DNA of 30,063 nt from an uncultured archaeon (GTDB taxonomy: Archaea > Iainarchaeota > Iainarchaeia > Iainarchaeales > CSSED10-239). Under the pieces are notes generated by a model that did no database searches, was not told where the DNA came from, and saw only the letters and a list, made by a program, of their open reading frames with translations. The translations under genes were made by a program, and so were the position numbers. Positions 113-20,910 of this stretch are shown here, one piece after another. Where the stretch lies: NCBI GenBank assembly GCA_964468895.1, contig CAYXWT010000006.1, positions 1 to 30,063 on the forward strand, written 5' to 3'. Position 1 is the stretch's first letter, and every line of letters starts with the position of its first letter.

Positions 113-1288
113 CTAGTTTATCTTGTCTAAATCTTCTAAAAATAAACTATAACTCTCCCAAGAGTTGTTTTTATATATTAGAAAATCATTTTCTAAAATT
201 ATACTAAAAATATTATTTTGCCCTTCTTGTTCTTTGTCTATTAAATATATAGAATATTCTTGATCTTCTATTAATAAACTATTATTTACTTCTCCTATAA
301 ACATACCATTTTGTGGTTCTATAGCAATAGCATCTATATTATTAATATCTAAAATTGTATTAATTTTATTTTTAGATAAAATTATAAAACAATGACCACC
401 AACTTTATTTGTTTGTAAATCATAAGCTTTTCCACAAGCAACATATGGATAATTATAATCATTATACTCTATACCTTCTATACCTTTATCATAATACCAC
501 TCTTCATCTTCATCAATATAATAATTTTTACTTGTATTACTACTTATTATTGGTTCTATAACTATTCTTTTATCTTTAGTTAAATTAGAAGTAATATATC
601 TAAGTTCTGAAGCAAAAAGAAGAGAAAAGTCTTCACAATCTCCTTTTTTAATATCTAAAAAAGATTGTAAACTTTGAAGTTTATCTTCTTTGTTAGTTAT
701 AATTTTGTCTTCTGAGTATTTAAGTTTAAATGTCTTATTGTTTTTTAAATTAATACAAGCTAATTTAATTTTACAAGAAGTACTATTACAAATAATACAA
801 TCTTTTAGCGAAACATCCATTCTATGTTTAATATTATCATCTAGATAATCTATATTTGAATTTAATTTAAACCAATCCATAGATTCTCTAATATCTTTTC
901 TAAAATTATTAAGATCTTGGGAAAGATAATTGTAATTATTTAAAATCACATTATAATCACTTGAAAGATTGTTATAATCTAATATAACTTCTTTTTTAGA
1001 ATTTTGACTAATTTTGTATTCTTCTTTAAGTATATTGTATTCTTTTTCTTTATTATTTAAATTTATTTCTAAAGCTTGTTTTTCAAAATTAGTTTGGTTA
1101 TAATCTTCTTTAATATTATTATAATTATTTAAAACATCTATATATTGTTGATTTTTTAAATTATATTTTGAATCTAAATCATTATATTTAGAAACAGATT
1201 GAATACAAAAAATAGTTAATATTAATATAAGTAAAATTAAAATAACAAATTTATAAGAATGATTTCTTTTTAAGTTCATAAAAAACAA
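113..1288 (-). CDS. Membrane-anchored coiled-coil protein with a C-terminal transglutaminase-like (papain-fold) cysteine protease core
   Basis: N-terminal TM helix (YKFVILILLILILTIFCIQSV). A long Asn/Tyr/Lys-rich heptad-like stalk follows (EYNILKEEYK, DYNNLSSDYNVILNNYNYL). The C-terminal domain has the ordered motifs KKGDCEDFSLLFASELRY (Cys), VGGHCFIIL (His) and AIAIEPQNG (acidic), as in the Transglut_core Cys-His-Asp triad. Stop codon is TAG. Confidence 0.6.
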   Translation of the reverse strand: MFFMNLKRNHSYKFVILILLILILTIFCIQSVSKYNDLDSKYNLKNQQYIDVLNNYNNIKEDYNQTNFEKQALEINLNNKEKEYNILKEEYKISQNSKKEVILDYNNLSSDYNVILNNYNYLSQDLNNFRKDIRESMDWFKLNSNIDYLDDNIKHRMDVSLKDCIICNSTSCKIKLACINLKNNKTFKLKYSEDKIITNKEDKLQSLQSFLDIKKGDCEDFSLLFASELRYITSNLTKDKRIVIEPIISSNTSKNYYIDEDEEWYYDKGIEGIEYNDYNYPYVACGKAYDLQTNKVGGHCFIILSKNKINTILDINNIDAIAIEPQNGMFIGEVNNSLLIEDQEYSIYLIDKEQEGQNNIFSIILENDFLIYKNNSWESYSLFLEDLDKIN

Positions 1289-1519: not shown

Positions 1520-2293
1520 TTATTGTGGATATATAATTTCAAGAGCATAACCTGTAGAATCATTATAACTAACATTTTCAAACTCAGAATTTATAAAACC
1601 GTCTTCCCAATACTTTGTTTTATTATAAACAGTACTATCAGGATAAACTTCTTTTGATAATTCTTCACCTAAAACTCCATTCTCATAATAGTATTGATTT
1701 GATTGATAATAATTACCATCTTTTTTTTCAAAATAAGTTTTCAAAACTAAATCTCCATCTGTATCAATTGTAGTATCTGAATATCTAAAATCCTCATTAT
1801 TATTTTGAAAAACTTTTTCTTGGTAAAAATCAGCATCATTTAAAACAAAGTTAAATTGATCATAATTTTGAACAATACTATCAGGATTTGTTTTTTCTGT
1901 ATAATTATTATAAACTTTGCCATCGTAATACATTTCTCTATTATAATAAGTACTATCTGACCATTCTTCTTTATATATTATAACTTCAGGATTATTATCT
2001 TTATCAAATCTTTGATAATTTGAAATTTTCACATTACCTAAATCATCTACAGTGTATATTTCATTAATAGTGGTTATATCATTACTACTGTAAGTTGTAA
2101 CATATCCATTTCCTTTACCTAAAGGCTGTGCTGGAATCACAACAACATCATAAGTTTCATAGTCTAAATCATTATAGGTTGGGTAATATGATGTATCTTC
2201 TACATCTTCTGCAAAAACAATATTTATATTTAAAAGTAATATAAATACAAAAAAGATATTAATTCCTAATATTAATTTTTTATTTAAATTCAT
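1520..2293 (-). CDS. Secreted Y/N/D-rich repeat protein, paralog 1 of a five-member tandem family
   Basis: Signal peptide MNLNKKLILGINIFFVFILLLNINIVFA|ED. The mature part is Tyr/Asn/Asp/Glu-rich with recurring x-D-S-T motifs (WSDSTYYN, YPDSTVYN, YNDSTGYA) and Y-x-(D/N)-G hairpin-like repeats. GGAGGG lies 8 nt upstream of the ATG. Confidence 0.75.
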   Translation of the reverse strand: MNLNKKLILGINIFFVFILLLNINIVFAEDVEDTSYYPTYNDLDYETYDVVVIPAQPLGKGNGYVTTYSSNDITTINEIYTVDDLGNVKISNYQRFDKDNNPEVIIYKEEWSDSTYYNREMYYDGKVYNNYTEKTNPDSIVQNYDQFNFVLNDADFYQEKVFQNNNEDFRYSDTTIDTDGDLVLKTYFEKKDGNYYQSNQYYYENGVLGEELSKEVYPDSTVYNKTKYWEDGFINSEFENVSYNDSTGYALEIIYPQ

Positions 2294-2301
2294 ATTTTAA
2301 T

Positions 2302-2307
2302 CCCTCC
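2302..2307 (-). promoter_or_regulatory. Shine-Dalgarno-like GGAGGG, 8 nt upstream of the ATG at 2293
   Basis: The plus strand reads ccctcc at 2302-2307. The same GGAG-type element with 5-9 nt spacing recurs before several other genes in the window. Confidence 0.5.
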
Positions 2308-2460
2308 AATAAATAATATATTATAAGATTTTTAAAATTGGTTTCGGTGTAATTTTATAACTTGTTTTAGTTAATAATATTAGGTAGCGTTAACTATATA
2401 AATATAAGTTTTATAATATATTAAATGAAATTTACATTAAAAACACTAAACAAAAACATA

Positions 2461-3006
2461 TTATTCCAAAAAACCAGAATATTCATCTATAAAACCATAA
2501 TCTAAATACTTATTATAATATTCATAACCTTTATTAAATTCATTATTAGGAAATTCTACTCTTTTATATTCATACCTATCAAAATTAGATTCAGGTCTTG
2601 AATCATATATTTCTATAGAAGTTATAGTACTATCACTATTTACGTTTTCTAAATAGTTTCTAGAATAATCTAACTTTGAATAATTTACTTCTACGTTATA
2701 AGTTCCATCTCTATAATCAGTTTCATAATAACTTATAGTGGGGTATCTAGTATCATCAAAAACTTTAAAATCAGTTATTGTACTATCGTTATATACTTTT
2801 TGTTCTAAATTATAATTATATTCTTTATTTTTATAAATTGTATGTGGATTATTAGTTCCATCTCCAACATTTCGTAACGTTTCTTGATCTGATGAAGACC
2901 AATTAACCATGTCAAACCAACCTAAATCTTGCGCAAATATTACATTTACATATAAACATAATATTAGTAAAATAAATATATAAAAAAAACTTTTTTTAAA
3001 CTTCAT
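2461..3006 (-). CDS. Secreted Y/N/D-rich repeat protein, paralog 2 (short member)
   Basis: Signal peptide MKFKKSFFYIFILLILCLYVNVIFA|QD. The mature N-terminus (W..MVNWSS..GDG..P.T.Y...YNDSTITDF) aligns by eye with paralog 4 (W..IDWSN..GDG..PNTLY...YNDSTVTEI). It also carries NSDSTITSIEIYD. Confidence 0.7.
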   Translation of the reverse strand: MKFKKSFFYIFILLILCLYVNVIFAQDLGWFDMVNWSSSDQETLRNVGDGTNNPHTIYKNKEYNYNLEQKVYNDSTITDFKVFDDTRYPTISYYETDYRDGTYNVEVNYSKLDYSRNYLENVNSDSTITSIEIYDSRPESNFDRYEYKRVEFPNNEFNKGYEYYNKYLDYGFIDEYSGFLE

Positions 3007-3045
3007 TATAATTTTATTCTACAAAATTTATTTAAATATATTGAA

Positions 3046-3978
3046 TTATTTTTTAGTATATTTATTTAAAGTACCATCTTCATTATATTCTTTATAAAAA
3101 TTATAATTTCTAGAATTATCTTCTGTAAACTCTACAGTACCCATTTCAATGTAAAGATCTTCATCATTAAAATAATCTATATCTGTATCATCAAAATATT
3201 TTCTATTTGAATTAATAGTACTATCAGAATTAACAAACTGGTATTCTACACCTTCTCCAAAATTTTCTATATACTTCTTTTCTAATTGATATTTTTCATC
3301 ATCAGTTTTCTCTTTATAGAAAATTATCTCTTTATCATTTTCAGTATTAATATGTTTTTTAACATTGTAATCATCATTTTCATAAATTACAAAATTATGA
3401 GAGATTTTATTTCCTTTGTAATCAGAACGAATATTATCTTCACAAACAAAACTATCTGGATTTGCATATTCATATACAAGTAATTCTTTTTCACCTTTAT
3501 CAGTATAATTATATATTTCTTTATGATAATCATTTTTTGTTTTGGTAATAGAATAAGTTTTATCTAAAGTTCTATCATCATTAAATTCAAATGCTCTTAT
3601 GTTTTCATTATTTTTATATTTTTCATAGTAATAATTATAACTTGGAACAACATCTGTATTATAACTAGTATTATAGCCTACAATTTCAATGAATTCGCCT
3701 TTTTTAGGTGTATAAATATTTTGAATAGAATCATCTTTATCATCGTAATTTACATTTTGTGTTAATTGTACTGAACCACGATAATTTTCATATTCAATTT
3801 CATCTTGACTATTAAAAAAACTAACATCTAAATCCCTAGCATTATCATAAACAACATCAAATTGAGAATCTCGATAAAAATAGTTTTCAGATTCTGCAAA
3901 AACTAAATTTATATTTAATATTAATATAAATATTAAAATAATACTACTTAAAATTGTAAATCTTTTATTTAGATTCAT
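3046..3978 (-). CDS. Secreted Y/N/D-rich repeat protein, paralog 3
   Basis: The ORF track begins at 3984 (MYMNLNK). The second ATG at 3978 gives MNLNKRFTILSSIILIFILILNINLVFA|ES, which matches the family signal peptide and sits at proper spacing from AGGTGA. Contains NSDSTINSN and NPDSFV motifs. Confidence 0.7.
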   Translation of the reverse strand: MNLNKRFTILSSIILIFILILNINLVFAESENYFYRDSQFDVVYDNARDLDVSFFNSQDEIEYENYRGSVQLTQNVNYDDKDDSIQNIYTPKKGEFIEIVGYNTSYNTDVVPSYNYYYEKYKNNENIRAFEFNDDRTLDKTYSITKTKNDYHKEIYNYTDKGEKELLVYEYANPDSFVCEDNIRSDYKGNKISHNFVIYENDDYNVKKHINTENDKEIIFYKEKTDDEKYQLEKKYIENFGEGVEYQFVNSDSTINSNRKYFDDTDIDYFNDEDLYIEMGTVEFTEDNSRNYNFYKEYNEDGTLNKYTKK

Positions 3979-4142
3979 ATACATTCACCTTTTTTATTTT
4001 TTTACAAAATAAAACTCATAACCACTAATTCGATAATTATACTAGGTTACATTATAAACAATATAAGTTTAATTAGATTTATAAAGATATTGAAAAAATA
4101 AGAAAAAAAGAAAATTAAATATATAATAATTATATATTTAAA

Positions 4143-5231
4143 TTATCTTGGTAAATTATACTCAACATTTATTAAACTATTTTCATAGTCAGGATGATTA
4201 ACTTTAAGATTATAAAGATTATCACTCCCGTCATATTGACTTTCTATATTAATATAAAAGTCAGTATTTGGATTTAAATTTTGAGTGTCAGTACCAACAT
4301 GACTATAATCTATATTATAGATATTTTCATAGTCATAAATAACTGTTTGATCAGAATCAACAATATTTTGTCTATTAATTAAAAATTCTATACCATCTGA
4401 AGAAGTTGAATCTTTTTGAACAGCATTATAAGTTAAACCTTCTTGATTATCATGAAAGGTATAATTAGAATTATGAAAATCAGATTCTTCAAATTCACTC
4501 TTTAAACTTCCATCAGGATAATATGTTTTATTAAATTTAGAATAAGGAGAAACATGAGAGTTAGTACCTTCTCTTTCTAAAGTTCCATCAGGATAATAAT
4601 ATTGATATTCAATAAGTGTATCGTCATCAAAATTCTTATATTCTTTTTCTAAAGTACCATCTGGATGATATTCTCTTCCACTTTTTAAACCAGGTGTAAA
4701 AATCATATCAGTTACAGATCCATCATCATAAGTATGTTTAAGATGATTTTTATAATCTCCATTAGAATATTCTACATTATCATTTTCAAGTTTACCTAAA
4801 TAAATATCTTCATTATAAGATTGAATTCTTGTACTGTCAGCATTTGAAGTCACATAGTTAGATTTATACATATAACCATCATCTAAATATTCTTTATCTT
4901 CAAATTTATAGTTTCCATTTGGATAATCTACTTCAGATCTATAGTAACCAAGATCTCCATTTTCGTTAAATTCAGTAATTTCAGTTACAGTACTATCATT
5001 ATATGTACTTTGTAATAATTCATAATCATCTGTTACATCATAATATAATGTGTTTGGAGCTGAATACCCATCACCTGCATGGTAATTTGTTGTACCACTC
5101 TCATTTGACCAATCTATTTTATCCCAATATTGTCCATGTATATAATCTGCAGAAACTATACTTATATTTAAAAGTAATATAAATACAAAAAATATACTAC
5201 TGACAATTGTTAATTTTTTATTTAATGTCAT
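4143..5231 (-). CDS. Secreted Y/N/D-rich repeat protein, paralog 4 (longest; MORN-variant/YD-like hairpin repeats)
   Basis: Signal peptide MTLNKKLTIVSSIFFVFILLLNISIVSA|DY. Repeats include EYHPDGTLEKEYKNF, YYYPDGTLEREG, TYYPDGSLKSEFEE and VDYPNGNYKFEDKEY. Also has YNDSTVTE and NADSTRIQ. GGGG lies 9 nt upstream of the ATG. Confidence 0.75.
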   Translation of the reverse strand: MTLNKKLTIVSSIFFVFILLLNISIVSADYIHGQYWDKIDWSNESGTTNYHAGDGYSAPNTLYYDVTDDYELLQSTYNDSTVTEITEFNENGDLGYYRSEVDYPNGNYKFEDKEYLDDGYMYKSNYVTSNADSTRIQSYNEDIYLGKLENDNVEYSNGDYKNHLKHTYDDGSVTDMIFTPGLKSGREYHPDGTLEKEYKNFDDDTLIEYQYYYPDGTLEREGTNSHVSPYSKFNKTYYPDGSLKSEFEESDFHNSNYTFHDNQEGLTYNAVQKDSTSSDGIEFLINRQNIVDSDQTVIYDYENIYNIDYSHVGTDTQNLNPNTDFYINIESQYDGSDNLYNLKVNHPDYENSLINVEYNLPR

Positions 5232-5284
5232 ATTTTATTTCCCCTTTAACTTTTTATTTATTTTTTATTTAATTTAAAATATTA

Positions 5285-6085
5285 TTATTTATTTTCTAAA
5301 TATTTATTTATTTCATAAGATCTATCCCAAAAAAATGTTTTATCAGGATCTTGATTTATTTCTGGTAAATCATTAGATAACAAACTTTCTTTTTTATCAA
5401 AATCAACATAATATATTCTATCATTAGAATAAAAAGTATCATTTGGTAAATCACTTGCTCTTTTATAAGAACCTTTATAAACAGCAATATTATCTAAGTC
5501 ACCATTACTATAAGTTTCTGTATAAAATGTAGAATTCTGATTCTCTGTATTTAAATTATCTAAAATAAATTTATCTCTTTTGTACATTTCATCATTAACA
5601 TAATAATATTCTTTATTAGTTAATATGGAATTTTGATTATGTATAGAATCTTCCATTTCATATTTACCATCCAAATATCTCTTAGTAAATTCAGATTTAC
5701 TAGTACCATCAGGATATGCAACTTCATAAATATTTGAAAAAGACTCATCATTATATTCTTCTTCTATATTATATAAAGTACTATCAGAATATACTTCAAC
5801 AGATGTATTTGAACTTTTCTCAAAAGTACCATCTTGTAAATATTGAGATTTAGTAGAATAACTAGATTCTAACAAAGTATCATTTTCAGGATAGTAAATA
5901 ATATTTTCATAAGATTTAAAGATAGGACCATTTTCAGTATCATACCATGTTGTAATATAATCTTGATTTCCACAACTTATAGTATCACAGAATGTATCCT
6001 CTGCAAAAACTATATTTACATTTAAAAGTAATATAAACACAAAAAATATACTACTTCCTAATATTAATTTTTTATTTAATTTCAT
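5285..6085 (-). CDS. Secreted Y/N/D-rich repeat protein, paralog 5
   Basis: The ORF track starts at 6133. The internal ATG at 6085 gives MKLNKKLILGSSIFFVFILLLNVNIVFA|ED, nearly identical to the paralog 1 leader, and is preceded by GGAG with an 8-nt spacer. Contains VAYPDGTSKSEFTKRYLDGKYEMED and YSDSTLYN. Confidence 0.75.
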   Translation of the reverse strand: MKLNKKLILGSSIFFVFILLLNVNIVFAEDTFCDTISCGNQDYITTWYDTENGPIFKSYENIIYYPENDTLLESSYSTKSQYLQDGTFEKSSNTSVEVYSDSTLYNIEEEYNDESFSNIYEVAYPDGTSKSEFTKRYLDGKYEMEDSIHNQNSILTNKEYYYVNDEMYKRDKFILDNLNTENQNSTFYTETYSNGDLDNIAVYKGSYKRASDLPNDTFYSNDRIYYVDFDKKESLLSNDLPEINQDPDKTFFWDRSYEINKYLENK

Positions 6086-6093
6086 ATTTATTT

Positions 6094-6097
6094 CTCC
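6094..6097 (-). promoter_or_regulatory. Shine-Dalgarno-like GGAG, 8 nt upstream of the ATG at 6085
   Basis: The plus strand reads ctcc at 6094-6097. This supports the internal start over the ORF-track start at 6133. Confidence 0.45.
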
Positions 6098-6316
6098 ATA
6101 AAATTTTAAATCTATACAAATGTAATTATACAATGTTAATTAGTAATATATTTGTGGTTGAGTAAAGTTTATATATCTATTTAATTTAAAATTAAATATA
6201 AGTCTTTATATTTACTATTAAAATCTTTTCTAAATTTGTAATTATATTCTATATAATAGTTATAAATACTAAATTATATTATTTAAAAAACAGATCTAAA
6301 ATCATAAAATTTTAAA

Positions 6317-7193: not shown

Positions 7194-8399
7194 ATGTTTA
7201 AGCTTGTATTTAAAAAAGATGAACTTAAATTCCTATTACCTTTTTATTTATATATTTTTATTAACAGAGCATTTAAACTTATATCTTTGTTTTCTGTATT
7301 ATATTTTTTAGAAATTGGTTTAGGAATATTACAAATTAGCTTTATAATGTCTATAAACTATGTTGCACAGTTAATATTTGAAATACCAACTGGTGCTATT
7401 TCTGATATATTTGGAAGAAAATTTTCTGTACTATTAAGTTTTACTGGGATAAGTATTTGTTTGATTTTGGTTCCTTTCACATCAAATTATTATGTAATAT
7501 AATTATTATATTTTGGATATGGCTTTTTTAGAACATTTAAATCTGGTTCTAACCAATCTTGGGTAATAGACAATTTAAAATATCATAATAAAGGCAATCT
7601 AATTAAAGAATTTTATACTAAAAGACATAGTATAATAAATTTAGGACTTTGTTTAACTGGTATTATAGGATCTATTTTTAGAGCATTATTTGGATTAAAA
7701 TGTATTTGGTTTATTGGAGCTTTAGGAAATATATTTAGTTTTGTAATTTTATATTTTACTAAAGAATATAAAACAGATAATAAAATTGAAAAAACTAATA
7801 AAAACAATATCTTGAATAAGATAAAAGAATCTTTCATATATATTCAAAAAAATAAAATTGTATTTATTTTACTTTTAAGTTCATTTTTATTAAGTGTTTC
7901 TACATGTCTTAGAGGCTTTAAATTGGTTTGGGTAATTTTATTTACAGATTTAGGATTAAGTGCGGTTATTATTGGTCTAATAAATAGTGTTTCAGCAATA
8001 GGAGGAATATTTTTACCATATACTTCAAAATATTTTTCAAAATTAATAAAATCAGAAAGCAAGTTAATAGCCACTATGTTTTTTATTCAAATACTAGCAC
8101 TATTTAGTATATTTTTTGTAAATGACTACATTTCAGCAATAATACTATTTTTAATAATTTACATTATAATAGATATTATAAGTCCTATTAGAAATTATTT
8201 CTTCCAAAAACAAGTTAATAGTAAAATAAGAGCAACACTTACATCTACAGAAAATATGTTTAAATCTATAGCTTATATTATTGGTGTACCTCTTGCAGCA
8301 TATTTTATAGAAACAGTAGGAGTCAATTTAACTTTTGTGTTTAGTGGTGTTATACTAATTCCCTTTGTTATATTACTTTATAAATTAAAAAACAATTGA
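7194..8399 (+). pseudogene. MFS transporter: a 402-codon frame interrupted by one in-frame TAA at 7500-7502
   Basis: ORFs 7194..7502 and 7812..8399 are in the same frame. I translated 7503-7811 by hand and found no stop (LLYFGYGFFRTFKSGSNQSWVIDNLKYHNKGNLIKEFYTKRHSIINLGLCLTGIIGSIFRALFGLKCIWFIGALGNIFSFVILYF...). MFS motif A is PTGAISDIFGRKFSVLL. The total length of about 400 aa with about 12 hydrophobic segments fits a complete MFS protein. Confidence 0.6.
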
Positions 8400-8475: not shown

Positions 8476-9345
8476 ATGTTAGGATACGTTTACGCATTTT
8501 TATGCTTTATATTTTTTTCTTTTTATGTACTTGCTTCTAAGCATTCATTAAAGAAAATTAATGAATACTTATTAGGATTTTTTTTACAAAGTATGTTTAT
8601 AATTACTATACCTTTAGTTATCATTTTTGGGATACCATCAATTGGACCTCATTTTGTTTTAGCTTTAATTATTGGTTCTATATTAAATTTTATAGCAACT
8701 ATTTTCTATCTTAAAGCTATTAAAAATGCAGAAGTATCTAGTACAATTCCATTTATTACACTAACTCCATTGTTTTTATTAATTACTTCTCCTTTTATTG
8801 TTGGAGAATATGCTGGGCTTTATGATATGATTGGTATTGTTTTAATAGTTATTGGAACTTATGTACTAGAAATTAAAAAAAATAAAAAAGGATTTCTAAG
8901 TCCATTTAAAGAACTAGTTAAAAATAAAAGTGCAATATACATGTTAATTGTAGCTTTTATATATAGTATTACATCAAATATAGATAAAATAGGTGTTCAA
9001 AATTCATCACCTTTATTTTGGGTGTTTTCATTAAATTTAATAATGGCTTTATTATTTGCTTGTGTTTTACTTAAAAAATCTAATTTTAATTTAAATTATT
9101 TTAAAAAAGATTTAAAAAATATTAAATTTGCAATTCCTGCAGGTATATTTAAGATTTTAACTTGTATTTTTCAAATGCTTGCTTTAAATTTAATATATGT
9201 TTCACATGTAATAGCCATAAAAAGAAGTAGTGTTATTTTAACTGTTTTATTAGGAGCAATATTATTTAAAGAAAAAAATCTTAAACAAAGAATATTTGCA
9301 ACATTAATTATTGTTGCAGGTGTATTAATAATGATTTTAACCTGA
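8476..9345 (+). CDS. EamA/DMT-superfamily transporter
   Basis: 289 aa with about 10 hydrophobic helices in a two-fold arrangement. Each half ends in a typical EamA-like segment (YLKAIKNAEVSSTIPFITLTPLF; SHVIAIKRSSVILTVLLGAILFKEK). Stop codon is TGA. Confidence 0.7.
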   Translation: MLGYVYAFLCFIFFSFYVLASKHSLKKINEYLLGFFLQSMFIITIPLVIIFGIPSIGPHFVLALIIGSILNFIATIFYLKAIKNAEVSSTIPFITLTPLFLLITSPFIVGEYAGLYDMIGIVLIVIGTYVLEIKKNKKGFLSPFKELVKNKSAIYMLIVAFIYSITSNIDKIGVQNSSPLFWVFSLNLIMALLFACVLLKKSNFNLNYFKKDLKNIKFAIPAGIFKILTCIFQMLALNLIYVSHVIAIKRSSVILTVLLGAILFKEKNLKQRIFATLIIVAGVLIMILT

Positions 9346-9600: not shown

Positions 9601-11265
9601 TTATTTTTTGGGCTTTTTAACTTTTGTTTTCTTACTTTTTATTTTTGGTTTTTTTCTTATTTTGTTTGACTTTTGTTTTTTATTTAAGGAAAAGATAATT
9701 ACTGCTGCAATTATAACTATTATCAATATGATTATTAGAATATTTGCATCAAAACCTGAAGATTTTACACATACACAGTTCTTTGTATCAAGAAGTGTAC
9801 CTTCTGGACATGAAATATCACATAAAAGTTTTGAACCTCTTTCACCACCTTGGTTCAAGTCCTTTTCTTGTAAATCACTATCATTAACATCTTTTGAAGT
9901 TAAATTTTGGTCATCATCTACACTAACATTTGCATCTTCACATACACAAGTATCTTCATTTAAAGTATAACCATCATCACAAACCAATTCACATACTTCT
10001 TCAGCTACTATTTCTTCACATGTGCAAGTGTCTCCATTTAAAGTGTAACCATCATCACAAACCAACTCACATACTTCTTCAGCTACTATTTCTTCACATG
10101 TGCAAGTGTCTTCATTTAAAGTGTAACCATCGTCACAAACCAACTCACATACTTCTTCAGCTACTATTTCTTCACAAGCACAAGTATCTATATTTAAATC
10201 ATAACCTGTATTACAATCTAAAGAACAAACACAAACATTATCTACACAAGAAAAGTTTTCATCACAATCACTATCAATTAAACAACTTGCTGGCTCTCCA
10301 GATATTGCAAATTCAGAAAAAGAAGTTGTTTTTGCAGAATATAAATTTGTTTCTGAATTTTCTAAAGTAGTATCTAATAATTCATAAGTACTACCATTAT
10401 AGTGATATAAATTTATATTTTGAGAAGGAATACTATTAATAGTCATCCACGCTTCAGGAACTGTAAAATAAATAGAAGCATCTACAAAACTATTATTATA
10501 ATTTAATGGTAAATCAATATCATAACAAGAATATATTTCTTTATTATTTATAGTAGAAGAACATGTTTTTGGAGTAACTGGATAAGAATTAAAAGTATAA
10601 TCTACAATTCCATTATTTATTTTCATTTCATAAATATTTTCTGGAAATTCTAGTCCTAAAGAAATATCAAATTCATTATTTTGAATAGTTTCTAAATTTA
10701 TTTGACCACTTGTTTGTACATATCTGTCTTTAGAAACAATATAATCATAATTATGAAAAACTTCCATATCTCCAAAACCTAAGTTATATATACTTTTTTG
10801 ATAAATAAGTTTAACTAAACCAGTAGTTTCTAATGGTATAAAATCTATTTGAATATTATTATCAGGATCTGTTAAATCTATAGATATTAATTCTATTTTA
10901 TCAGGAACTATTGCTTGGTTTCCTTCATCATAAAAATTTAAGCTAGTATTATATTTTTCTATAATTCTTCCTTCATTATCTGCTGACAAATACATTTTTT
11001 CATTAGATATTAAACTATCAATAAGATCTACAAAAGAATTATCAGCATTAACTTGTTTTGAAGAACAATTAGATAAATCTGAATTAGATAAAATTAAATT
11101 AGAATCATGAACTTCATAACAAATATCTACTAAAAAGTCAGAACTAAAATTACTAATATTAGCTTGTGTACTACCATTTATATAAAATGGAAGTAATTCT
11201 TCAGAACCTTCATATGTTGTATTATTAATATTAAGAATACTACTAGTTGTAGCATACAAACCCAT
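9601..11265 (-). CDS. C-terminal part of a large surface protein: beta-sandwich domains, Cys-rich EGF-like repeats, TM anchor and poly-Lys tail
   Basis: It has no signal peptide of its own although the content is clearly extracellular. A domain ends NLYHYNGSTYELLDTT...YSAKTTSFSEFAISG (PGF-pre-PGF-like). Three near-identical 26-aa modules read CEEIVAEEVCELVCDDGYTLNEDTCT. The C-terminus has the TM helix ILIIILIIVIIAAVIIF followed by KKQKSNKIRKKPKIKSKKTKVKKPKK. It is in frame with 11386..12309. Confidence 0.75.
   Translation of the reverse strand: MGLYATTSSILNINNTTYEGSEELLPFYINGSTQANISNFSSDFLVDICYEVHDSNLILSNSDLSNCSSKQVNADNSFVDLIDSLISNEKMYLSADNEGRIIEKYNTSLNFYDEGNQAIVPDKIELISIDLTDPDNNIQIDFIPLETTGLVKLIYQKSIYNLGFGDMEVFHNYDYIVSKDRYVQTSGQINLETIQNNEFDISLGLEFPENIYEMKINNGIVDYTFNSYPVTPKTCSSTINNKEIYSCYDIDLPLNYNNSFVDASIYFTVPEAWMTINSIPSQNINLYHYNGSTYELLDTTLENSETNLYSAKTTSFSEFAISGEPASCLIDSDCDENFSCVDNVCVCSLDCNTGYDLNIDTCACEEIVAEEVCELVCDDGYTLNEDTCTCEEIVAEEVCELVCDDGYTLNGDTCTCEEIVAEEVCELVCDDGYTLNEDTCVCEDANVSVDDDQNLTSKDVNDSDLQEKDLNQGGERGSKLLCDISCPEGTLLDTKNCVCVKSSGFDANILIIILIIVIIAAVIIFSLNKKQKSNKIRKKPKIKSKKTKVKKPKK
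9950..10183. repeat. Three tandem copies of a 78-bp unit (9950-10027, 10028-10105, 10106-10183), with degenerate copies on both flanks
   Basis: Read directly from the sequence. The units (gt[a/g]tct[t/c]catttaaagt[a/g]taaccatc[a/g]tcacaaaccaa[t/c]tcacatacttcttcagctactatttcttcaca...) differ at only a handful of positions. Each encodes one 26-aa Cys-rich module on the minus strand. Confidence 0.9.
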
Positions 11266-15181: not shown

Positions 15182-18064
15182 CTATACATTTAATATTAAT
15201 TCTTTTATTTTATTTATAGACAAAGGTTTTATAATATCTATTTTATTTTGAGTTATGTAGTAGATTTTACACATGATATTTGCCTTAGGATAATTACCTT
15301 TTAAACAATGATAATAAACAGATAATTGTTTAATATACTCATTATGATTAATTTTACTAGTATCTGTTTTATAATCCACTATTTGATAAATATTACTTCC
15401 AAAGTCACAAATTAAATCTATGTTACCTCTTATTAAATTATCATTTATAGGAATTGTACAATCCACTTCTGTTAAAAAATTTGCATTTAAGTTAGTAATA
15501 AATTTTCTCAAATTATTTACTTCAGGAGTTTTATAATCATCTACTTCTATTCCTAAAGCTATTTTTTGAGCACATTCATGTATATAATTTCCAAATTTTA
15601 TACCCTTACCAATTGTTTTTTCATCATTAGTATAATTCATAATATCATGAACAGAAAGAACTAGACCTCTCTTATGATATTTAGAAATATGTATATCTAC
15701 ACTATTAGTAATTTTATTTTCTTTAGTATAATTTAAATTAAATTGTTCCAAATATTCTTCTGAATTTTTAGTTTTTTCTAAAAGTTCACTATAAAATAAA
15801 GAGGGATTATAAGAACTTAAAAACAAATATTGTTTAGCTCTAGTAATAGCAACATAATATAGTCTTCTTTCTTCATCATAATCAGGTTTATTTATAATAT
15901 TTACAAAATCACTACTTGGATTATAATAATCAGAATAATAATTATTACTTAAACAAACTTTTTTATTTAATCTAAGTCCTGTTAAATCATTATAATTTAT
16001 AATATTTTTATCACTATTAGAAGAAGGAAATTGCTTTTTATTTATATTAGAGATAAATACAACTGGATATTCAAGTCCTTTTGAACCATGTATTGTTTGT
16101 ATATTTATAGAATTGTTATATTCTACATTTTCTAACACATAAGTTCCATTGTTTTTTATATTTTCTTCTATAAAATAAACAAGATCAGAAACACTCATTA
16201 AATTATTATTAAACAAATCAGAAATTATAGTAATAATCTTATTTGAATATTTATTTTTAAGATTATTAAATTTAAATACATTATTTACAATTTTAGTTAT
16301 AGTTTTTAAAGTTTTTATTTTATAAACAAAATTTATAATTTCAATAGGATAAACTCTATTTTCTAGTTTTGTACTTAATAGACTTTTTTTAAATTTAAAA
16401 GGATAATTGTTATAATCAAGAATAGTACTCCACGATTCTTTGTTATGTATATTTGAAATTAATTTTAAATATGCCAAAAGAATAATACCACATTCTTTAT
16501 TAAATAAATTAATACCTCCTTCATAACTGGCAGGAATATTTAGTTTAGAAGCTTCTTTTTGAAAATCTTGTGCAAATTTTCTATCTCTACAAAGAACAAC
16601 TACATCACTATAATTAATATTTCTATATTTTGTATGCTCATTAATATCTACATCTTTAATTTTATAATTATCATCTTTATTATTAATTATTTTTAAGATA
16701 TTATGTAAAATTAAATTAAATTCATTATCTCTAGAATTTGTTCTTAAAAATTTAATTTCAGAATAATCATTAAGTTCAAAATTAGCTTTTAATTGTACAA
16801 TATTGTTTTCTAATTCAGTATAATTAAGTTCTTCATCTTTACTTGCTTTTACTAAAAGAGAATTTTTAGAAAAATCTAATATTTTTTGAGAACTTCTAAA
16901 ATTAAGATCAAATTCCTTCTTTTCTACATTTACTTTAAAACCAATTCTAATTTCATCTTTATTTAATATTTCTTTATAATATTTTATTTTTTCTTCAAAT
17001 TCAAGTATATTATTAATAGTTGCATTTCTAAATCCATAGATACCTTGTTTCCAATCACCAACAACTAACAAATTATTATTTTTCATCAAAAGAAGAGTCA
17101 ACATAAATTGTAATTCATTAGTATCTTGAAATTCATCTATCATCACATATTCAAAACTATTATTATTTCTTATTTCCTTATTATAATACAATAAAATTAA
17201 ACTAAACATAGAAAGAAAACCAAAAGTTAATTTATTTTCTTTTACTGAATTTTCAATATATTGAATATAAATATCATGTATAAAATTAATAAGTAAAGTT
17301 CGATCTTCTAAATAATAAATTTGTTTTGCATCTTCAACATCAACTTGTTTTTCACTTTTCCAAGTCTCCAAATTAAAAATATTTTTATAATAATTATGAT
17401 TTTTAGAATTTAATTTTTTTAAAAATTTAGATTGAACTATTTTGTTTTTATTATTTTTGTTTTTATTTAAAAAATTAAATTCTCCAATAAATAAATCTAA
17501 ATTACCAACAAGTTTATTTTTGCCATCTAAAAACCAATCATTTTTAGTTGGAAATATACCTCTAGATTGTAATTTAAATATTAGTTTTAAAAGATCTTCA
17601 TAGTTATTATTAATTACATCAAATATTTCTTTATATTTTAGATAATTTTGTTTCTGAAAAGAATAATATGTTTTTTTAAAAAATTTATTATTTAAGATAA
17701 TATTATCCATTAATTTAAAATTCGAAGATAACTTTAAATTCAACCCCAAATAACTAGGAGTATCTTCTCCAAAAAGAGAAAGTAATTTATTACAAAAAGA
17801 ATCAAAAGTAGAGATATTTGTATTCAATAAATTAATATCCGGTTTAGTTTTTATAATTTCACATATTATTTTATCTTTCATATTACTTGCAGCATTATTT
17901 GTAAAAGTTAAAAGTAATATATTTTCTATATTTATACTTGGTTGGTTTAATATATTCACAAATCTATTTGTTATACAATATGTCTTTCCAGTTCCTGCAC
18001 CAGCATCTACAACATACATCCCATCAATAGTGTTAGTAATATAATCTTGTTTTTCATTTTTCAT
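15182..18064 (-). CDS. addA: AddA/PcrA-like SF1 (UvrD-family) helicase fused to a C-terminal RecB-type PD-(D/E)xK nuclease
   Basis: Helicase motifs: I VVDAGAGTGKT; Ia LLLTFTNNAASNM; II VMIDEFQDTNELQ; III VVGDWKQGIYGFRNA; IV FRSSQKIL; V IQTIHGSKGLEYPVVF; VI ERRLYYVAITRAKQYLFL. Nuclease motifs: GNIDLICDF...IVDYKTD and YIKQLSVYY. The ORF-track start at 18085 is TTG. The first ATG (18064) overlaps the upstream TGA as ATGA and follows GAGGGTG (18070-18076). Confidence 0.85.
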   Translation of the reverse strand: MKNEKQDYITNTIDGMYVVDAGAGTGKTYCITNRFVNILNQPSINIENILLLTFTNNAASNMKDKIICEIIKTKPDINLLNTNISTFDSFCNKLLSLFGEDTPSYLGLNLKLSSNFKLMDNIILNNKFFKKTYYSFQKQNYLKYKEIFDVINNNYEDLLKLIFKLQSRGIFPTKNDWFLDGKNKLVGNLDLFIGEFNFLNKNKNNKNKIVQSKFLKKLNSKNHNYYKNIFNLETWKSEKQVDVEDAKQIYYLEDRTLLINFIHDIYIQYIENSVKENKLTFGFLSMFSLILLYYNKEIRNNNSFEYVMIDEFQDTNELQFMLTLLLMKNNNLLVVGDWKQGIYGFRNATINNILEFEEKIKYYKEILNKDEIRIGFKVNVEKKEFDLNFRSSQKILDFSKNSLLVKASKDEELNYTELENNIVQLKANFELNDYSEIKFLRTNSRDNEFNLILHNILKIINNKDDNYKIKDVDINEHTKYRNINYSDVVVLCRDRKFAQDFQKEASKLNIPASYEGGINLFNKECGIILLAYLKLISNIHNKESWSTILDYNNYPFKFKKSLLSTKLENRVYPIEIINFVYKIKTLKTITKIVNNVFKFNNLKNKYSNKIITIISDLFNNNLMSVSDLVYFIEENIKNNGTYVLENVEYNNSINIQTIHGSKGLEYPVVFISNINKKQFPSSNSDKNIINYNDLTGLRLNKKVCLSNNYYSDYYNPSSDFVNIINKPDYDEERRLYYVAITRAKQYLFLSSYNPSLFYSELLEKTKNSEEYLEQFNLNYTKENKITNSVDIHISKYHKRGLVLSVHDIMNYTNDEKTIGKGIKFGNYIHECAQKIALGIEVDDYKTPEVNNLRKFITNLNANFLTEVDCTIPINDNLIRGNIDLICDFGSNIYQIVDYKTDTSKINHNEYIKQLSVYYHCLKGNYPKANIMCKIYYITQNKIDIIKPLSINKIKELILNV

Positions 18065-20910
18065 TCTAACACCCTCTTTAAACAAATAGTATTATATTGA
18101 CAATCCTTACAAACATTATCTTTAAGTGGTTTATATTCAAAACTATTTTCTAAATAATTGTTTATTAATTTATATTGTTCTTTTAGAAATTTAATAAAAT
18201 TATCTAAATCTTCTTTAAAAAAAAGAACTTTTGAACAATTCTTATAAGAGCAAAATCTAATTTTATAAATTTGATTAGGGATATTAAGTATAAGCTTTTT
18301 TGATTTTGTAAATTCACCTATATATTTACATAAATCATCATACCACTTTAATTTTTGATAATCTTTTAAATTATAATTTAAAATATTAATTTCTAAGTCA
18401 TGATTATTAAGATAATTTAAAAGATTAGACTCTCCAATTTTATTAATTAAATTAATTCTTTCTTGAGATGTTTTCAATATCTCAATAAATTCATTTGTTT
18501 TTATAAATTCTGAATAATATAAATCCACATATTTTACTTTTATAATATTACTATCATATAATTGATTACCTTTTTCATCTATTTCTTCTAATTCTTTAAA
18601 GTCAACTATATTTTTTTTAATAATAGTATTTTTGTTACTAAAAGGAAAATAATAATGAAATTCAATATTTTTATTTTTATTAAATTCAAGAGAATTTAAA
18701 TTAAGAATGTACAATAATGCTTGAAAATCTATATTTACTGCATTACCATTATTTTCATAAGTATTAGCATTATCAATATTAACACCATTTTGATAATCAG
18801 ATTTATTTTCATTCTTACTACTACTAACTACTAATTCTTTATTTGAATTTTTAAAAATGCTAGTTGTACTTTTTTTCAATTTAGAACTTTTATAATCTAT
18901 TATTAGATTATTATTTACTATTAAGTCAATAACACCTTTTATACTAAAAGTTTTATTTTCAAAATAAAATTCATTATTATTGGATTTTAATTTTACATTT
19001 AGTTTTTTCGCAAATATATTACACGTTTTATTTTTTACAGGCTTTTCTAAACTATTTTCTAAATTATGTACAATAATATTAAGATTATTTAAAAAAGCAA
19101 TACAATTCAATAGTGCAATTTTAAAATTGGTTCTTTCTAATTCATAATCTATTTCATTTATAAAAAAACTAAAATCTTGCATAATAATATCTAAAAAATA
19201 ATCAATTCCTTTTTGTAAAACAAGTTCTTTATTTTCTATATAAAATTCACAAAAATAATGTAAAAGAGTTCCTTTTCTTAAATAAATATTATCTTCTTGA
19301 TCTAATAATTTATAAAAATCTAACTTTTTAGGACAAAGAACAAAGTTATTTAAAGTTGTTTTTGAAAAAACAAATTCACACTTTTTTTCTAAAATATCAT
19401 CATCAACAACATTATTCTTAATTAAACTGATGTCTTTATTTTCTTTATCTTTAATATTTGAAATTATTTTTTTAGTATTAAATATAGAATCATTAAAAGA
19501 AATAATAGATTTATTAAAAATCTTTAAAAAATAAAAACAAGGGTTTGTTTTTTGACCATTTAAATATTCAGTTACAAAATAGTAATTATATTCTCCTTGT
19601 TGAACTAATATTTTAAATTTATCTTGAGCTTTTTGATCTTGTATTTTACTATCTTTATAAGATTTACTTTTAATATTACTAATCCAATTATTATCTAAAC
19701 CAACATAGAAACAAACAGGTTTATCAACATACATTGAATTTTTACAATCTACAATTAATACACCTTTTTTGGTTTTTTCTAAAACTAAATCTAAATTAAT
19801 AATACCATATTTAAGATCTTTTAAGTTATTTAAATTTATATAGTTATTAAATATATGTAAATTATATAACACATCTTTAAATTGAAAAGGTAGTAATAAT
19901 TTGTTATTTTCAAAGAAATAATAGAGCTTATTATAAGTAATATTTTCTTTTTTTAGATTTAATAAAATATCATATAAATCATCTAAAATTTGATTTTGGT
20001 TAATTTTATTAATATATTGTTTTAAATAATAATTATAATATTTATTATTTATTTCTATATTTAATAAATTTAAAAAAAAGGCAACATCTTTTATTTTCAA
20101 ATCATCTGTATTATAACTTAATTCTATCAAATTAATAAAATCTCTAATAATTATATTTTCATATAAATAAGATTTTATATTTAAATCTATTTCTTTATTA
20201 TCTAATTTAGATTTTATTATAGGCAAGATTTCAGAATTAGTATTAAGAATTATTGCAACATCATTTTGATTATCTTTAGTTATCAAATTTATTAAATTAT
20301 CAACAAGTTCTTTATTATTATCAAAATTAAAAAAAGAATTAAATTCAGTAATAAATTTATCTTCTTTAAATATACTAATTACATCATAATTATAATTTAA
20401 AGGTAATATATTTTTATCAAGTTCAGTAAAGAAATCAACTCCAATTATTGCTAATTTTTTATTTGGAAATATTTCTTGAAAATTAAACTTTTCTATAGCA
20501 AATTCACAAGTATTTAAATTCTTATAAATATTAAAAACAGTTAATTCATCTTTATTTAAAAAACTTGGAATTTGATTTATTGATCCTTTATTTTTATAAA
20601 TGTCAATTATTTTTAAATAGGTGTTATGTATAAATCCTAAATCAATATTATTTAATTTTAAATTTTTAGTATTATTAATTAAATTATAAATTCTTATAAT
20701 AACTTCAGTAGTATCTAAGACTTTATTATTTAGAAATAAAATTGAATTTTTAGATGCAATTTCTTTAGGAGTATAAGCAAATCCTCCAACAATTGGTTTA
20801 TTTATAGATTTATTTAAAGCAGTTACTAATGCTGGATCTATACTTATAACTAAATCATAATCTTTTACTTCATTATATAATTCAGATATAGATTTTATTT
20901 TATTTAACAT
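18061..20910 (-). CDS. addB: AddB-like subunit: degenerate (Walker A-less) helicase-like scaffold plus a C-terminal Fe-S 'iron-staple' PD-(D/E)xK nuclease domain
   Basis: No GxGK[ST] motif anywhere. Helicase-relic segments are KLAIIGVDFFTELDKNIL and VLIVDCKNSMYVDKPVCFYVGLDNNW. The nuclease has FVLCPKKLDFY (first Cys, codon 19335..19333), GVIDLIVNNNLIIDYKSSK, DFQALLYIL and a terminal CKDCQYNTIC (C-x2-C-x5-C). This is the AddB/Cas4/Dna2 four-Cys arrangement. The gene is translationally coupled (ATGA) to the AddA-like gene. Confidence 0.75.
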   Translation of the reverse strand: MLNKIKSISELYNEVKDYDLVISIDPALVTALNKSINKPIVGGFAYTPKEIASKNSILFLNNKVLDTTEVIIRIYNLINNTKNLKLNNIDLGFIHNTYLKIIDIYKNKGSINQIPSFLNKDELTVFNIYKNLNTCEFAIEKFNFQEIFPNKKLAIIGVDFFTELDKNILPLNYNYDVISIFKEDKFITEFNSFFNFDNNKELVDNLINLITKDNQNDVAIILNTNSEILPIIKSKLDNKEIDLNIKSYLYENIIIRDFINLIELSYNTDDLKIKDVAFFLNLLNIEINNKYYNYYLKQYINKINQNQILDDLYDILLNLKKENITYNKLYYFFENNKLLLPFQFKDVLYNLHIFNNYINLNNLKDLKYGIINLDLVLEKTKKGVLIVDCKNSMYVDKPVCFYVGLDNNWISNIKSKSYKDSKIQDQKAQDKFKILVQQGEYNYYFVTEYLNGQKTNPCFYFLKIFNKSIISFNDSIFNTKKIISNIKDKENKDISLIKNNVVDDDILEKKCEFVFSKTTLNNFVLCPKKLDFYKLLDQEDNIYLRKGTLLHYFCEFYIENKELVLQKGIDYFLDIIMQDFSFFINEIDYELERTNFKIALLNCIAFLNNLNIIVHNLENSLEKPVKNKTCNIFAKKLNVKLKSNNNEFYFENKTFSIKGVIDLIVNNNLIIDYKSSKLKKSTTSIFKNSNKELVVSSSKNENKSDYQNGVNIDNANTYENNGNAVNIDFQALLYILNLNSLEFNKNKNIEFHYYFPFSNKNTIIKKNIVDFKELEEIDEKGNQLYDSNIIKVKYVDLYYSEFIKTNEFIEILKTSQERINLINKIGESNLLNYLNNHDLEINILNYNLKDYQKLKWYDDLCKYIGEFTKSKKLILNIPNQIYKIRFCSYKNCSKVLFFKEDLDNFIKFLKEQYKLINNYLENSFEYKPLKDNVCKDCQYNTICLKRVLE

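Follow-up and report, generated by a model that had tools for sequence, protein, structure and literature searches.

A tandem array of five diverged, probably exported paralogs with recurrent hairpin-type units in an archaeal genome

What is encoded by a run of five neighbouring minus-strand genes in an AT-rich archaeal genome, and are their products related by more than composition? The window, which is the whole stretch of 30,063 nucleotides that was analysed, was found to contain five consecutive, co-oriented ORFs (A to E) on the minus strand. Their positions and product lengths, together with the repeat block of gene D, are as follows.

1520-2293, minus strand: gene A, 257 aa; its YYYENG / YWEDG region is marginally MORN_2-like
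2461-3006, minus strand: gene B, 181 aa, with four units in register
3046-3978, minus strand: gene C, 310 aa, the most divergent paralog
4143-5231, minus strand: gene D, 362 aa, the longest and the sole paralog with significant MORN_2 similarity
4494-4676, minus strand: repeat block of D (aa 186-246), three tandem MORN_2-like units spaced by 21-25 aa, YHPDGTLEKEY, YYPDGTLEREG and YYPDGSLKSEF
5285-6085, minus strand: gene E, 266 aa, with D[GS]T units at aa 85, 101 and 126

All five ORFs were found to be preceded by an RBS-like GGAG/GGAGG. The most likely start of gene E is the ATG at 6085 (MKLNKK...), with GGAG located 7-8 nt upstream and in agreement with the leader alignment; the TTG at 6133, taken as the start in the earlier note, is probably too far upstream. 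The most likely start of gene C is the ATG at 3978. The public gene calls (266 aa for E and 310 aa for C) match these starts, and the succession of five minus-strand genes was borne out by the ORF listing with the starts of E and C corrected.

The products of A, C, D and E were found to share a leader of 28 residues, M-x-LNKK...FILLLNINIVFA|E, whereas the leader of B was of the same type and more divergent. The near-identical signal peptide described earlier for all five proteins was confirmed, with this divergence of B. The leader modules were located as follows.

6002-6085, minus strand: leader module of E, 28 codons
5148-5231, minus strand: leader module of D, equivalent to that of E
3895-3978, minus strand: leader module of C, equivalent to that of E
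2210-2293, minus strand: leader module of A, equivalent to that of E
2932-3006, minus strand: leader module of B, divergent, 25 codons

At the DNA level the leaders of A, C, D and E were 78-91% identical and formed a DNA repeat family of 121 nt (D1). A core of 38 nt was found in four copies at ≤3 mismatches, against none in 100 shuffles, and the codon identity exceeded the expectation from codon usage (for example 19/20 against 12.2 between D and E). By eye, the leader contained an n-region with MxLNKK, an h-region of about 15 hydrophobic residues and a c-region with NINIVFA, in which V occupied position -3 and A position -1. It ended in VFA|E(D) with no Cys at +1, and neither a lipobox Cys nor a hydrophobic C-terminus was found in the five proteins. 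From these sequence features, the leader is probably a family-specific one of the Sec/signal-peptidase-I type, so the products are probably exported and cleaved; because of its long hydrophobic stretch, it could alternatively act as an uncleaved membrane anchor.

Tyr made up 11-14% of the mature regions, about twice the background, whereas eight other window proteins had 3-7%. Asp was moderately enriched, Lys, Ile and Leu were depleted, and Cys was present in 0-2 copies. Asn stood at the background level of a genome of about 20% GC and was as high in the other proteins of the window as in these five. The five proteins were acidic (pI about 4.0-4.42); other predicted exported proteins of the window were similarly acidic and the cytoplasmic ones had a pI of 8-10. 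The mature regions differed strongly between the copies, as had been noted, yet they were related beyond composition in nine of the ten pairs (Smith-Waterman z 2.2-10), the pair C-E giving no signal above composition. The N-terminal 78 mature residues of B were 36% identical to D.

All the motifs quoted in the earlier note were found in the sequences. D[GS]T was observed 17 times in the five proteins against 1.22 expected (14-fold; 0/2000 shuffles), and [YFWN]xD[GS]T[ILVFY] 10 times against 0.11 expected, with two occurrences of the motif across all other window ORFs of at least 60 aa. The units were spaced by 21-26 aa, often by about 25, and the flanks of the motif were conserved across the paralogs. 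A leave-one-protein-out profile of the 23-aa unit scored above anchor-preserving shuffles in 5/5 proteins (0-4/200). In B the units were found in register (DGT 49, DST 74, DGT 100 and DST 125), and in D they were located at aa 191, 215 and 240 with a spacing of 24-25, corresponding to direct DNA repeats of 72-75 nt (families D5/D8, 73-87% identical). The equivalence of D-S-T and D-G-T units is suggested by the register and by a weak similarity of the flanks (p about 0.04). A C-terminal homology of B and C suggested by MAFFT was confined to VNSDSTI and was discarded. Taken together, the leader, motif and pairwise statistics bear out tandem paralogs with a common export signal and a true recurrent hairpin-type repeat, and the array arose by tandem duplication followed by very fast divergence.

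The family PF07661 (MORN_2) includes the YwqK antitoxin of B. subtilis and many secreted proteins of Bacteroidota. D matched the Pfam MORN_2 model with 25.2 bits (E 1.4e-5) in one stretch at aa 208-223, the gathering score of 29.6 bits not being reached, and A, B, C and E gave no match to it at E≤1. An exhaustive phmmer search of D against 1.84e9 representatives retrieved five bacterial MORN_2-type proteins (E 1.5e-5 to 5.5e-4), all through aa 146-265 of D, which correspond to three or four units of 24-25 residues. D was also found to match the PF07661-annotated proteins P0002-5; the bona fide MORN_2 proteins matched by D are P0002-5 and P0013-17. An in-house MORN_2 profile gave 29.3 bits on D against a shuffle maximum of 5.8, a marginal 9.6 bits on A (1/200 shuffles), and scores not above shuffles on B, C and E. 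The four non-D paralogs show the unit spacing of D with a D-S-T / D-G-T core. In hhalign, their units could be aligned to bacterial MORN_2 units with the register preserved (P 1.9e-4), and the DST-only units gave no such alignment. The suggested MORN-variant (YwqK-like) repeats were thus significant in D and marginal in A, but were not detectable as MORN_2 in B, C and E.

The other suggestion, YD-type repeats, found no support in the HMM search: the five proteins had no match to YD-repeat/RHS families (PF05593 and relatives) in Pfam at E≤1 and none in NCBIfam. Beta-propeller families (Kelch, WD40, PQQ, SBBP etc.) likewise gave no Pfam match, and the low-confidence structure models showed open meanders, not closed propellers. 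Across Pfam, NCBIfam, PHROGs, PADLOC and PDB sequence searches with the five proteins, the sub-threshold MORN_2 match of D was the sole one. The AlphaFold2 model of D (D alone) had a pLDDT of 43 and contained hairpin meanders at aa 71-249; that of B (8-row alignment) had a pLDDT of 58.8 and contained nine strands in a hairpin series at aa 41-151. A beta-hairpin fold of the units is thus predicted at low confidence. Foldseek of the B model against the PDB gave nothing at E≤0.001 (best E 0.069, TM 0.22).

Homologs were sought by word-indexed searches that used D, C or a five-paralog profile as the query, and by the exhaustive phmmer search with D; the profile search was clearly insensitive, because C itself was missed. 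Among the 5.8 billion and 1.84 billion proteins searched, only the same locus in Antarctic marine-basin metagenomes, one variant of B (84% identical) and one homolog of C were found. The C homolog (P0019) belongs to a related population and is 59% identical to C, and its leader showed 79-81% DNA identity to the paralog leaders. Over the 15.6 kb of its contig that were seen, no other family member was present, and the gene neighbourhood was a different one, with no array and no transglutaminase (TG) neighbour. DNA-pattern and back-translated scans retrieved nothing in GTDB species representatives or IMG/VR, and a scan of JGI metagenome contigs, a collection that evidently lacks some of the samples carrying the locus, retrieved the same locus only. 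By sequence, the family is nearly orphan and lineage-restricted.

The genome is archaeal by its NMD3 and beta-CASP RNase, the organism is probably tiny-celled, and the GC content of about 20% fits a reduced-genome episymbiont, so the episymbiont-type genome proposed earlier agrees with the data in its archaeal origin and composition, the lifestyle itself being presumed. The reading that we prefer, at a probability of roughly 55%, is that the exported, diverged tandem paralogs of hairpin units serve a host-dependent archaeon as binding or coat proteins. Tandem duplication produced five paralogs that diverged very fast, and the leader would export each product and then be cleaved. The mature proteins would be made up largely of short beta-hairpins whose turn, aromatic-x-D-(G/S)-T, returns at intervals of ~12 and ~25 residues; the units of D are recognisably MORN_2, and the other paralogs would carry a degenerate or derived version. 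Flat beta-sheet surfaces rich in Tyr and Asp may offer contact to a ligand or partner, and the proteins would serve as extracellular or cell-surface binding proteins or as coat components of a small-genome, host-dependent archaeon. The host-contact role of the earlier note would follow by analogy and from the presumed lifestyle.

The constant leader followed by very divergent mature parts could also suggest a surface family under diversifying selection or antigenic/phase variation, with a constant 5′ module and variable mature parts like those of the Vlp/Vsa families of Mycoplasma. The dN/dS values of B (0.44) and C (0.61) exceed that of the TG-like neighbour (0.10), and C and D contained 8 nonsynonymous to 3 synonymous SNPs among near-identical strains, against 19 to 28 in the neighbour. 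However, these dN/dS values are below 1 and the SNP excess in C and D is not significant (Fisher p = 0.09). A and B contained no SNPs on any near-identical contig covering them, and the array was nearly invariant across near-identical contigs from six metagenome samples. The gene order was unchanged wherever it was seen among the strain contigs, with no variation in copy number or arrangement. The lipobox is missing, no homopolymer or invertible switch was seen, and neither a recombinase nor a reverse transcriptase was evident among the window ORFs, part of which were scanned against Pfam. The diversifying selection of the earlier note is not demonstrated by these data, and the variation reading is judged unlikely. 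A candidate phase-variation tract upstream of C was rejected, as the two intergenic strain indels there were both located outside homopolymers. Since the L011 methyltransferase is not orthologous to that of the window, no divergence baseline could be taken from L011. We propose, from the sequences compared, that the mature parts are under relaxed purifying rather than demonstrable positive selection, the leader being nearly constant with the distant homolog included.

Downstream of the array, one further gene was found.

113-1288, minus strand: neighbour, 391 aa, with an N-terminal membrane anchor, a coiled-coil-like region and the Cys motif GDCEDFSLLFA

In the four strain contigs extending beyond gene A (L003/L005, L004, L006 and L007), this gene came after A. 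Its Cys motif weakly resembles a transglutaminase core, and it matched Pfam PF01841 with E 0.032 and 15 bits against a cut-off of 23; PADLOC, NCBIfam and PDB searches gave nothing. Of the transglutaminase-like membrane protein described earlier, the membrane anchor is present, but the transglutaminase part is a sub-threshold match. The YwqK antitoxin family has MORN_2 as its repeat, YwqK provides immunity for LXG toxins, and YwqK-type proteins are cytoplasmic. The YwqJ/YwqK pair is discussed in PMC8321402 and PMC6562991. By analogy with tandem orphan-immunity arrays, the MORN_2 similarity of D and the position of divergent tandem paralogs immediately upstream of a membrane-anchored protein that carries a TG-core Cys motif might indicate an immunity-type array, in which secreted MORN_2-like proteins would guard against an exported, envelope-attacking TG/papain-fold-like neighbour. 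This is improbable, as the TG assignment is below threshold without PDB or NCBIfam support, the examined ORFs included no recognised toxin or secretion-system genes, MORN_2 was not detectable in four of the five proteins, the array proteins carry leaders unlike the cytoplasmic YwqK type, and the C homolog of the relative has no TG neighbour. Equally doubtful is a single extracellular module of a DPANN-type episymbiont that joins the five proteins and the neighbour. In this reading, the nearly constant leader would direct the Tyr/Asp-rich, MORN-like beta-sheet proteins to the cell surface, where the neighbour would cross-link or process them into an attachment matrix, or where they would shield the cell from it; if true, archaea would have a novel system of host attachment or self-protection that uses a derived D-S-T form of the MORN_2 hairpin.

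That the similarity is a by-product of extreme AT-rich codon composition (rich in Y, N, D, K and I) with no true family behind it accords with the low GC content and the uniformly high Asn, but it is refuted by Tyr at twice the background, motif counts above all 2000 composition-preserving shuffles, flank conservation and pairwise scores above their shuffles, the near absence of the motif from other window ORFs and the leader repeated in DNA, and is given hardly any weight.

To our knowledge, very little is known experimentally of how such uncultivated archaea attach to or sense their hosts. If the five are surface or contact proteins, they are candidates for host attachment or sensing in a small-genome archaeon of Antarctic stratified marine basins. 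Within one tandem array, a MORN_2 repeat known from bacteria can, by decay or divergence, become a D-S-T variant that is no longer recognisable, and this is of use in making profiles of DPANN/CPR-type orphan proteins more sensitive. At present, the array is a real yet fairly ordinary orphan surface-protein family, one more lineage-restricted family of secreted paralogs that opens no long-standing question.

Three known systems were compared with the array. The top Foldseek matches of the B model were variants of Borrelia OspA, all non-significant (E ≥ 0.069, TM about 0.2). The likeness lies in the antiparallel hairpin series of the predicted B topology and is a structural analogy only; there is no sequence similarity, and the match reflects generic beta-meanders and is no evidence of relationship. 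Like the variable surface (lipo)protein families Vlp/Vsa/Vsp of Mollicutes, the array is a set of related genes in tandem within an AT-rich reduced genome, and its 5′ ends, signal peptide included, are strongly conserved while the mature regions that follow are divergent and internally repetitive. Unlike them, the array contains no lipobox Cys, and no phase-variable homopolymer tract, site-specific inversion system or variation in copy number or arrangement among strains was seen. The search for literature on DPANN and MORN gave nothing relevant. The array proteins differ from the MORN_2 family in that the turn Gly is often Ser (D-S-T), the canonical G-x-W strand is lacking and the genome is archaeal; they also have a family-specific leader and a much higher acidity and Tyr content. 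They resemble it through D, whose three or four tandem units are about 24 residues long, have the core YY-P-D-G-[TS]-L-x-x-E and are predicted to form beta-hairpins throughout, and many of the bacterial members are secreted too.

The five consecutive minus-strand open reading frames placed by the earlier note at 1520-6133 were recovered. Gene E, the last of them, probably does not begin at TTG 6133. The aligned 5′ regions were found to contain a purine-rich RBS-like element (GGAGG, AGGGG, GGAG or GGTGA) 4-8 nt before an ATG, which was the opening codon of a common leader in all five genes. The likely starts were therefore settled on these two features, and the public gene calls for the locus concur (266, 362, 310, 181 and 257 aa for E, D, C, B and A).

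Genes of the array, with starts taken from the RBS-like element and the leader alignment
1520-2293, minus strand: gene A, 257 aa
2461-3006, minus strand: gene B, 181 aa
3046-3978, minus strand: gene C, 310 aa
4143-5231, minus strand: gene D, 362 aa
5285-6085, minus strand: gene E, 266 aa

The reading preferred here, at a probability of about 0.55, is one of tandem duplication, with the five genes encoding acidic, Tyr-rich beta-hairpin-repeat proteins, one of which keeps recognisable MORN_2 (Pfam PF07661) units. All five would be exported through a family-specific Sec leader, and their probable role would be extracellular, in binding or as parts of a coat.

The near-identical signal peptide ascribed earlier to all five was present in A, C, D and E (M-x-LNK(K/R), a hydrophobic stretch to LLLNINIVFA, then E/D), whereas B was found to contain a more divergent version, MKFKKSFFYIFILLILCLYVNVIFA followed by QD. 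A 38-nt core of the leader occurred four times at three or fewer mismatches against zero in 100 shuffles, and no direct repeat in the region was longer than a module of 121 nt (family D1) that runs from about -30 to +90. DNA identity between paralog leaders was 78-91%. Codon sharing at identical leader residues was above the codon-usage prediction (19/20 against 12.2 for D-E), and the leader of P0019, a homolog 59% identical to C, was 79-81% identical to those of A, C, D and E and no nearer to C than to A/E. On these comparisons, strong constraint on the leader itself accounts for most of the pattern, and some additional homogenisation of the A, D and E leaders is possible. By eye, the leader follows an n-h-c layout of signal peptidase I type, with V at -3 and A at -1; no lipobox Cys or prepilin-type [KR]-G cleavage site was found in the leaders, and a hydrophobic C-terminus was absent from all five proteins. 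As judged from the leader, the products are probably cleaved and exported; alternatively, it may serve as an uncleaved signal anchor.

The mature regions, described earlier as Y/N/D-rich, were enriched in Tyr (11-14% against 3-7% in eight other window proteins) and Asp (10-12% against 4-9%), with Lys, Ile and Leu reduced, whereas Asn was at the genomic background. With a pI of 4.05-4.42 and a net charge of -14 to -43, they were strongly acidic. The pI values in the window were bimodal, lying at 4.0-4.9 for predicted exported or membrane-exposed proteins with a leader or anchor and at 8-10, with one exception at 5.9, for the remaining proteins with 180 aa or more; the acidic pI of A to E thus independently fits an extracytoplasmic location.

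The whole window was about 20% GC, without tRNA or Rfam matches, and was found to encode a beta-CASP/RMMBL RNase and an NMD3-family protein (E 5.9e-32). NMD3 is not known outside archaea and eukaryotes, so the source organism is an archaeon, for which a small-genome DPANN-type lifestyle is plausible. Elsewhere in the window, an acidic 554-aa protein (9601-11265, minus strand) contained three near-identical Cys-rich repeats (CEEIVAEEVCELVCDDGYTLNEDTCT), had a transmembrane segment at its C-terminus as well as a Lys-rich tail, and gave no Pfam match. Two hydrophobic ORFs of 102 and 195 aa (plus strand, 7194-7502 and 7812-8399) are separated by about 300 nt and resemble the two parts of a single membrane transporter, which gene disruption or a sequencing frameshift may have split. 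Two large overlapping genes at 15182-20910 (minus strand; 967 and 949 aa) resemble, by eye, a UvrD-type helicase and a PD-(D/E)XK/Cys-cluster nuclease partner (an AddAB-like pair).

Every recurrent motif quoted in the earlier note was found in A to E. The counts of D[GS]T (17 against 1.22 expected), DST (10 against 0.75), DGT (7 against 0.42) and the extended motif [YFWN]xD[GS]T[ILVFY] (10 against 0.11) were reached in none of 2000 shuffles, and in the window's other ORFs D[GS]T was found just twice and the unit profile had no match. Neighbouring motifs were often spaced by 21-26 residues, with a regular series in B (DGT 49, DST 74, DGT 100, DST 125). The unit was found to prefer an aromatic residue at -2/-6, Val/Tyr at -3, an aliphatic at +3 and an aromatic at +9, preferences which indicate a predicted strand-turn-strand, followed about 10-12 residues further on by a weaker second turn, [YF]-x-D-[DGS]. 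When a 23-residue unit profile was built on four proteins and the fifth was scored, the left-out protein beat shuffles that kept the D[GS]T anchors fixed in all five cases (0, 2, 0, 4 and 0 of 200 reaching its score); conservation of the unit therefore extends past its D[GS]T core. Mature-region kinship beyond composition was found in 9 of 10 paralog pairs, including B-D (z = 10, 36% identity over 78 N-terminal residues), A-D (z = 5.3) and A-C (z = 5.0), the exception being C-E. The three clearest units of D were 72-75-nt direct DNA repeats, 73-87% identical, which indicates a fairly recent internal amplification.

AlphaFold2 models were of low confidence and consistent with a hairpin-repeat fold, which would extend to all five proteins. 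The model of D, made without an alignment (pLDDT 43), contained an N-terminal helix and, over residues 71-249, a succession of 15 short strands, and that of B, for which paralogs and variants were aligned in eight rows (pLDDT 58.8, pTM 0.46), contained nine strands forming a hairpin series at 41-151. A Foldseek search of the B model against the PDB gave nothing at E<=0.001; the best matches, OspA single-layer-sheet variants (E 0.069-0.5, TM about 0.2), are generic beta-meanders.

The suggested MORN-variant likeness held for D, was weak for A and was not detected in B, C and E, and the YD-type/RHS and propeller alternatives found no Pfam match at E<=1. In Pfam, D had one sub-threshold MORN_2 match (25.2 bits, E 1.4e-5; gathering score 29.6) and A, B, C and E had none. 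Against 5.8 billion word-indexed proteins, D matched four PF07661-annotated proteins (E 7.7e-4 to 6.8e-3), each with a C-terminal non-repeat region. Exhaustive phmmer against 1.84 billion cluster representatives gave seven proteins at E<=1e-3, of which one was the 99% copy of D itself and one a variant of B. The other five were bacterial proteins of canonical MORN_2 units (E 1.5e-5 to 5.5e-4), all of them aligning at D residues 146-265. With a profile from bacterial MORN_2 units, D reached 29.3 bits where its shuffles peaked at 5.8, A reached 9.6 bits (1/200 shuffles), and B, C and E were no better than shuffles. D thus carries a short MORN_2-like array, and four of the five proteins are outside any described family. 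In hhalign, an in-register alignment with the bacterial MORN_2 units was obtained for the units of the four non-D paralogs (P 1.9e-4, probability 48%) but not for D-S-T units taken by themselves; D-S-T and D-G-T flanks were weakly alike (79/2000 shuffles). The D-S-T unit is probably a relative of the MORN_2-like unit, either derived or degenerate.

The locus was found at 98.0-99.7% nt identity in IMG metagenomes 3300039186 (Taynaya Bay, Vestfold Hills, Antarctica; PMC8620254), 3300039187, 3300031601 and 3300031645 and in ENA assemblies ERZ27316756 and ERZ27317826. Wherever visible, the order E-D-C-B-A followed by the transglutaminase-like (TG-like) gene was unchanged, the longest piece (strain contig L004) containing the 3′ end of E, then D-C-B-A-TG. 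An 836-bp contig (ERZ27316756 k141_1064611) joins window 9082..8935 (99%) directly to 3119..2430 (90%). This contig is either chimeric through assembly or comes from a second strain that has lost 5.8 kb, a deletion which, if real, takes out E, D, most of C, the methyltransferase and the transporter genes. No relative was found in scans of 185,579 GTDB species representatives or IMG/VR; P0019 (313 aa) was found in IMG 3300077567 and 3300077319.

A diversifying or phase-variable surface family would be an unlikely alternative. Across the near-identical copies, A and B contained no SNPs, C contained 3 nonsynonymous and 1 synonymous, and D contained 5 and 2; the pooled 8:3 of C and D did not differ significantly from 19:28 in the TG-like gene (Fisher p = 0.09). 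B and its 84%-identical variant P0008 gave dN/dS 0.44 (dS 0.18, dN 0.079) against 0.10 for the TG-like gene, and C and P0019 gave about 0.61, a comparison in which AT bias has probably compressed dS. The diversifying selection proposed earlier is thus left without demonstrable positive selection; the family is under relaxed purifying selection and stable within the population. Together, the scans, the two homologs and the dN/dS values place it in a narrow lineage as a fast-evolving family.

An immunity-type array partnered with the TG-like neighbour (113-1288, minus strand, 391 aa) is less likely still, and just as doubtful is a joint extracellular module of A to E and this enzyme for attachment or self-protection. 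The neighbour's transglutaminase-like label comes from a 15-bit sub-threshold match around its GDCEDFSLLFA motif and gained no PDB or NCBIfam support. P0019 is on a 27-kb contig, and in the 15.6 kb of it that were seen there was no other family member, hence no array, and no TG-like neighbour; its flanking genes were one of the AbiEii family and one that is Asn-synthase/diphthamide-synthase-like. On that related-population contig (L011, 3418-5595), the single C-like gene lies immediately downstream of the AbiEii-family (nucleotidyltransferase toxin) gene. In strain contigs L003 and L004, codons ~260-391 of the TG-like gene, its final third, contained about 30 SNPs (dS 0.37, dN/dS 0.09) and the 4 kb upstream two only, which looks like a recombination-tract edge inside the gene.

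A compositional artefact was refuted, since the motifs, the unit profile and the pairwise kinship all exceed shuffles. Exported hairpin-repeat paralogs with a probable extracellular binding or coat role stay the preferred reading, and the locus gives no pointer to an unusual mechanism. Orphan secreted paralog arrays are common in reduced genomes. Secreted proteins of short beta-hairpin (MORN_2-like) repeats are already known; what is new here is a lineage-specific variant, tandem-expanded in a reduced genome.
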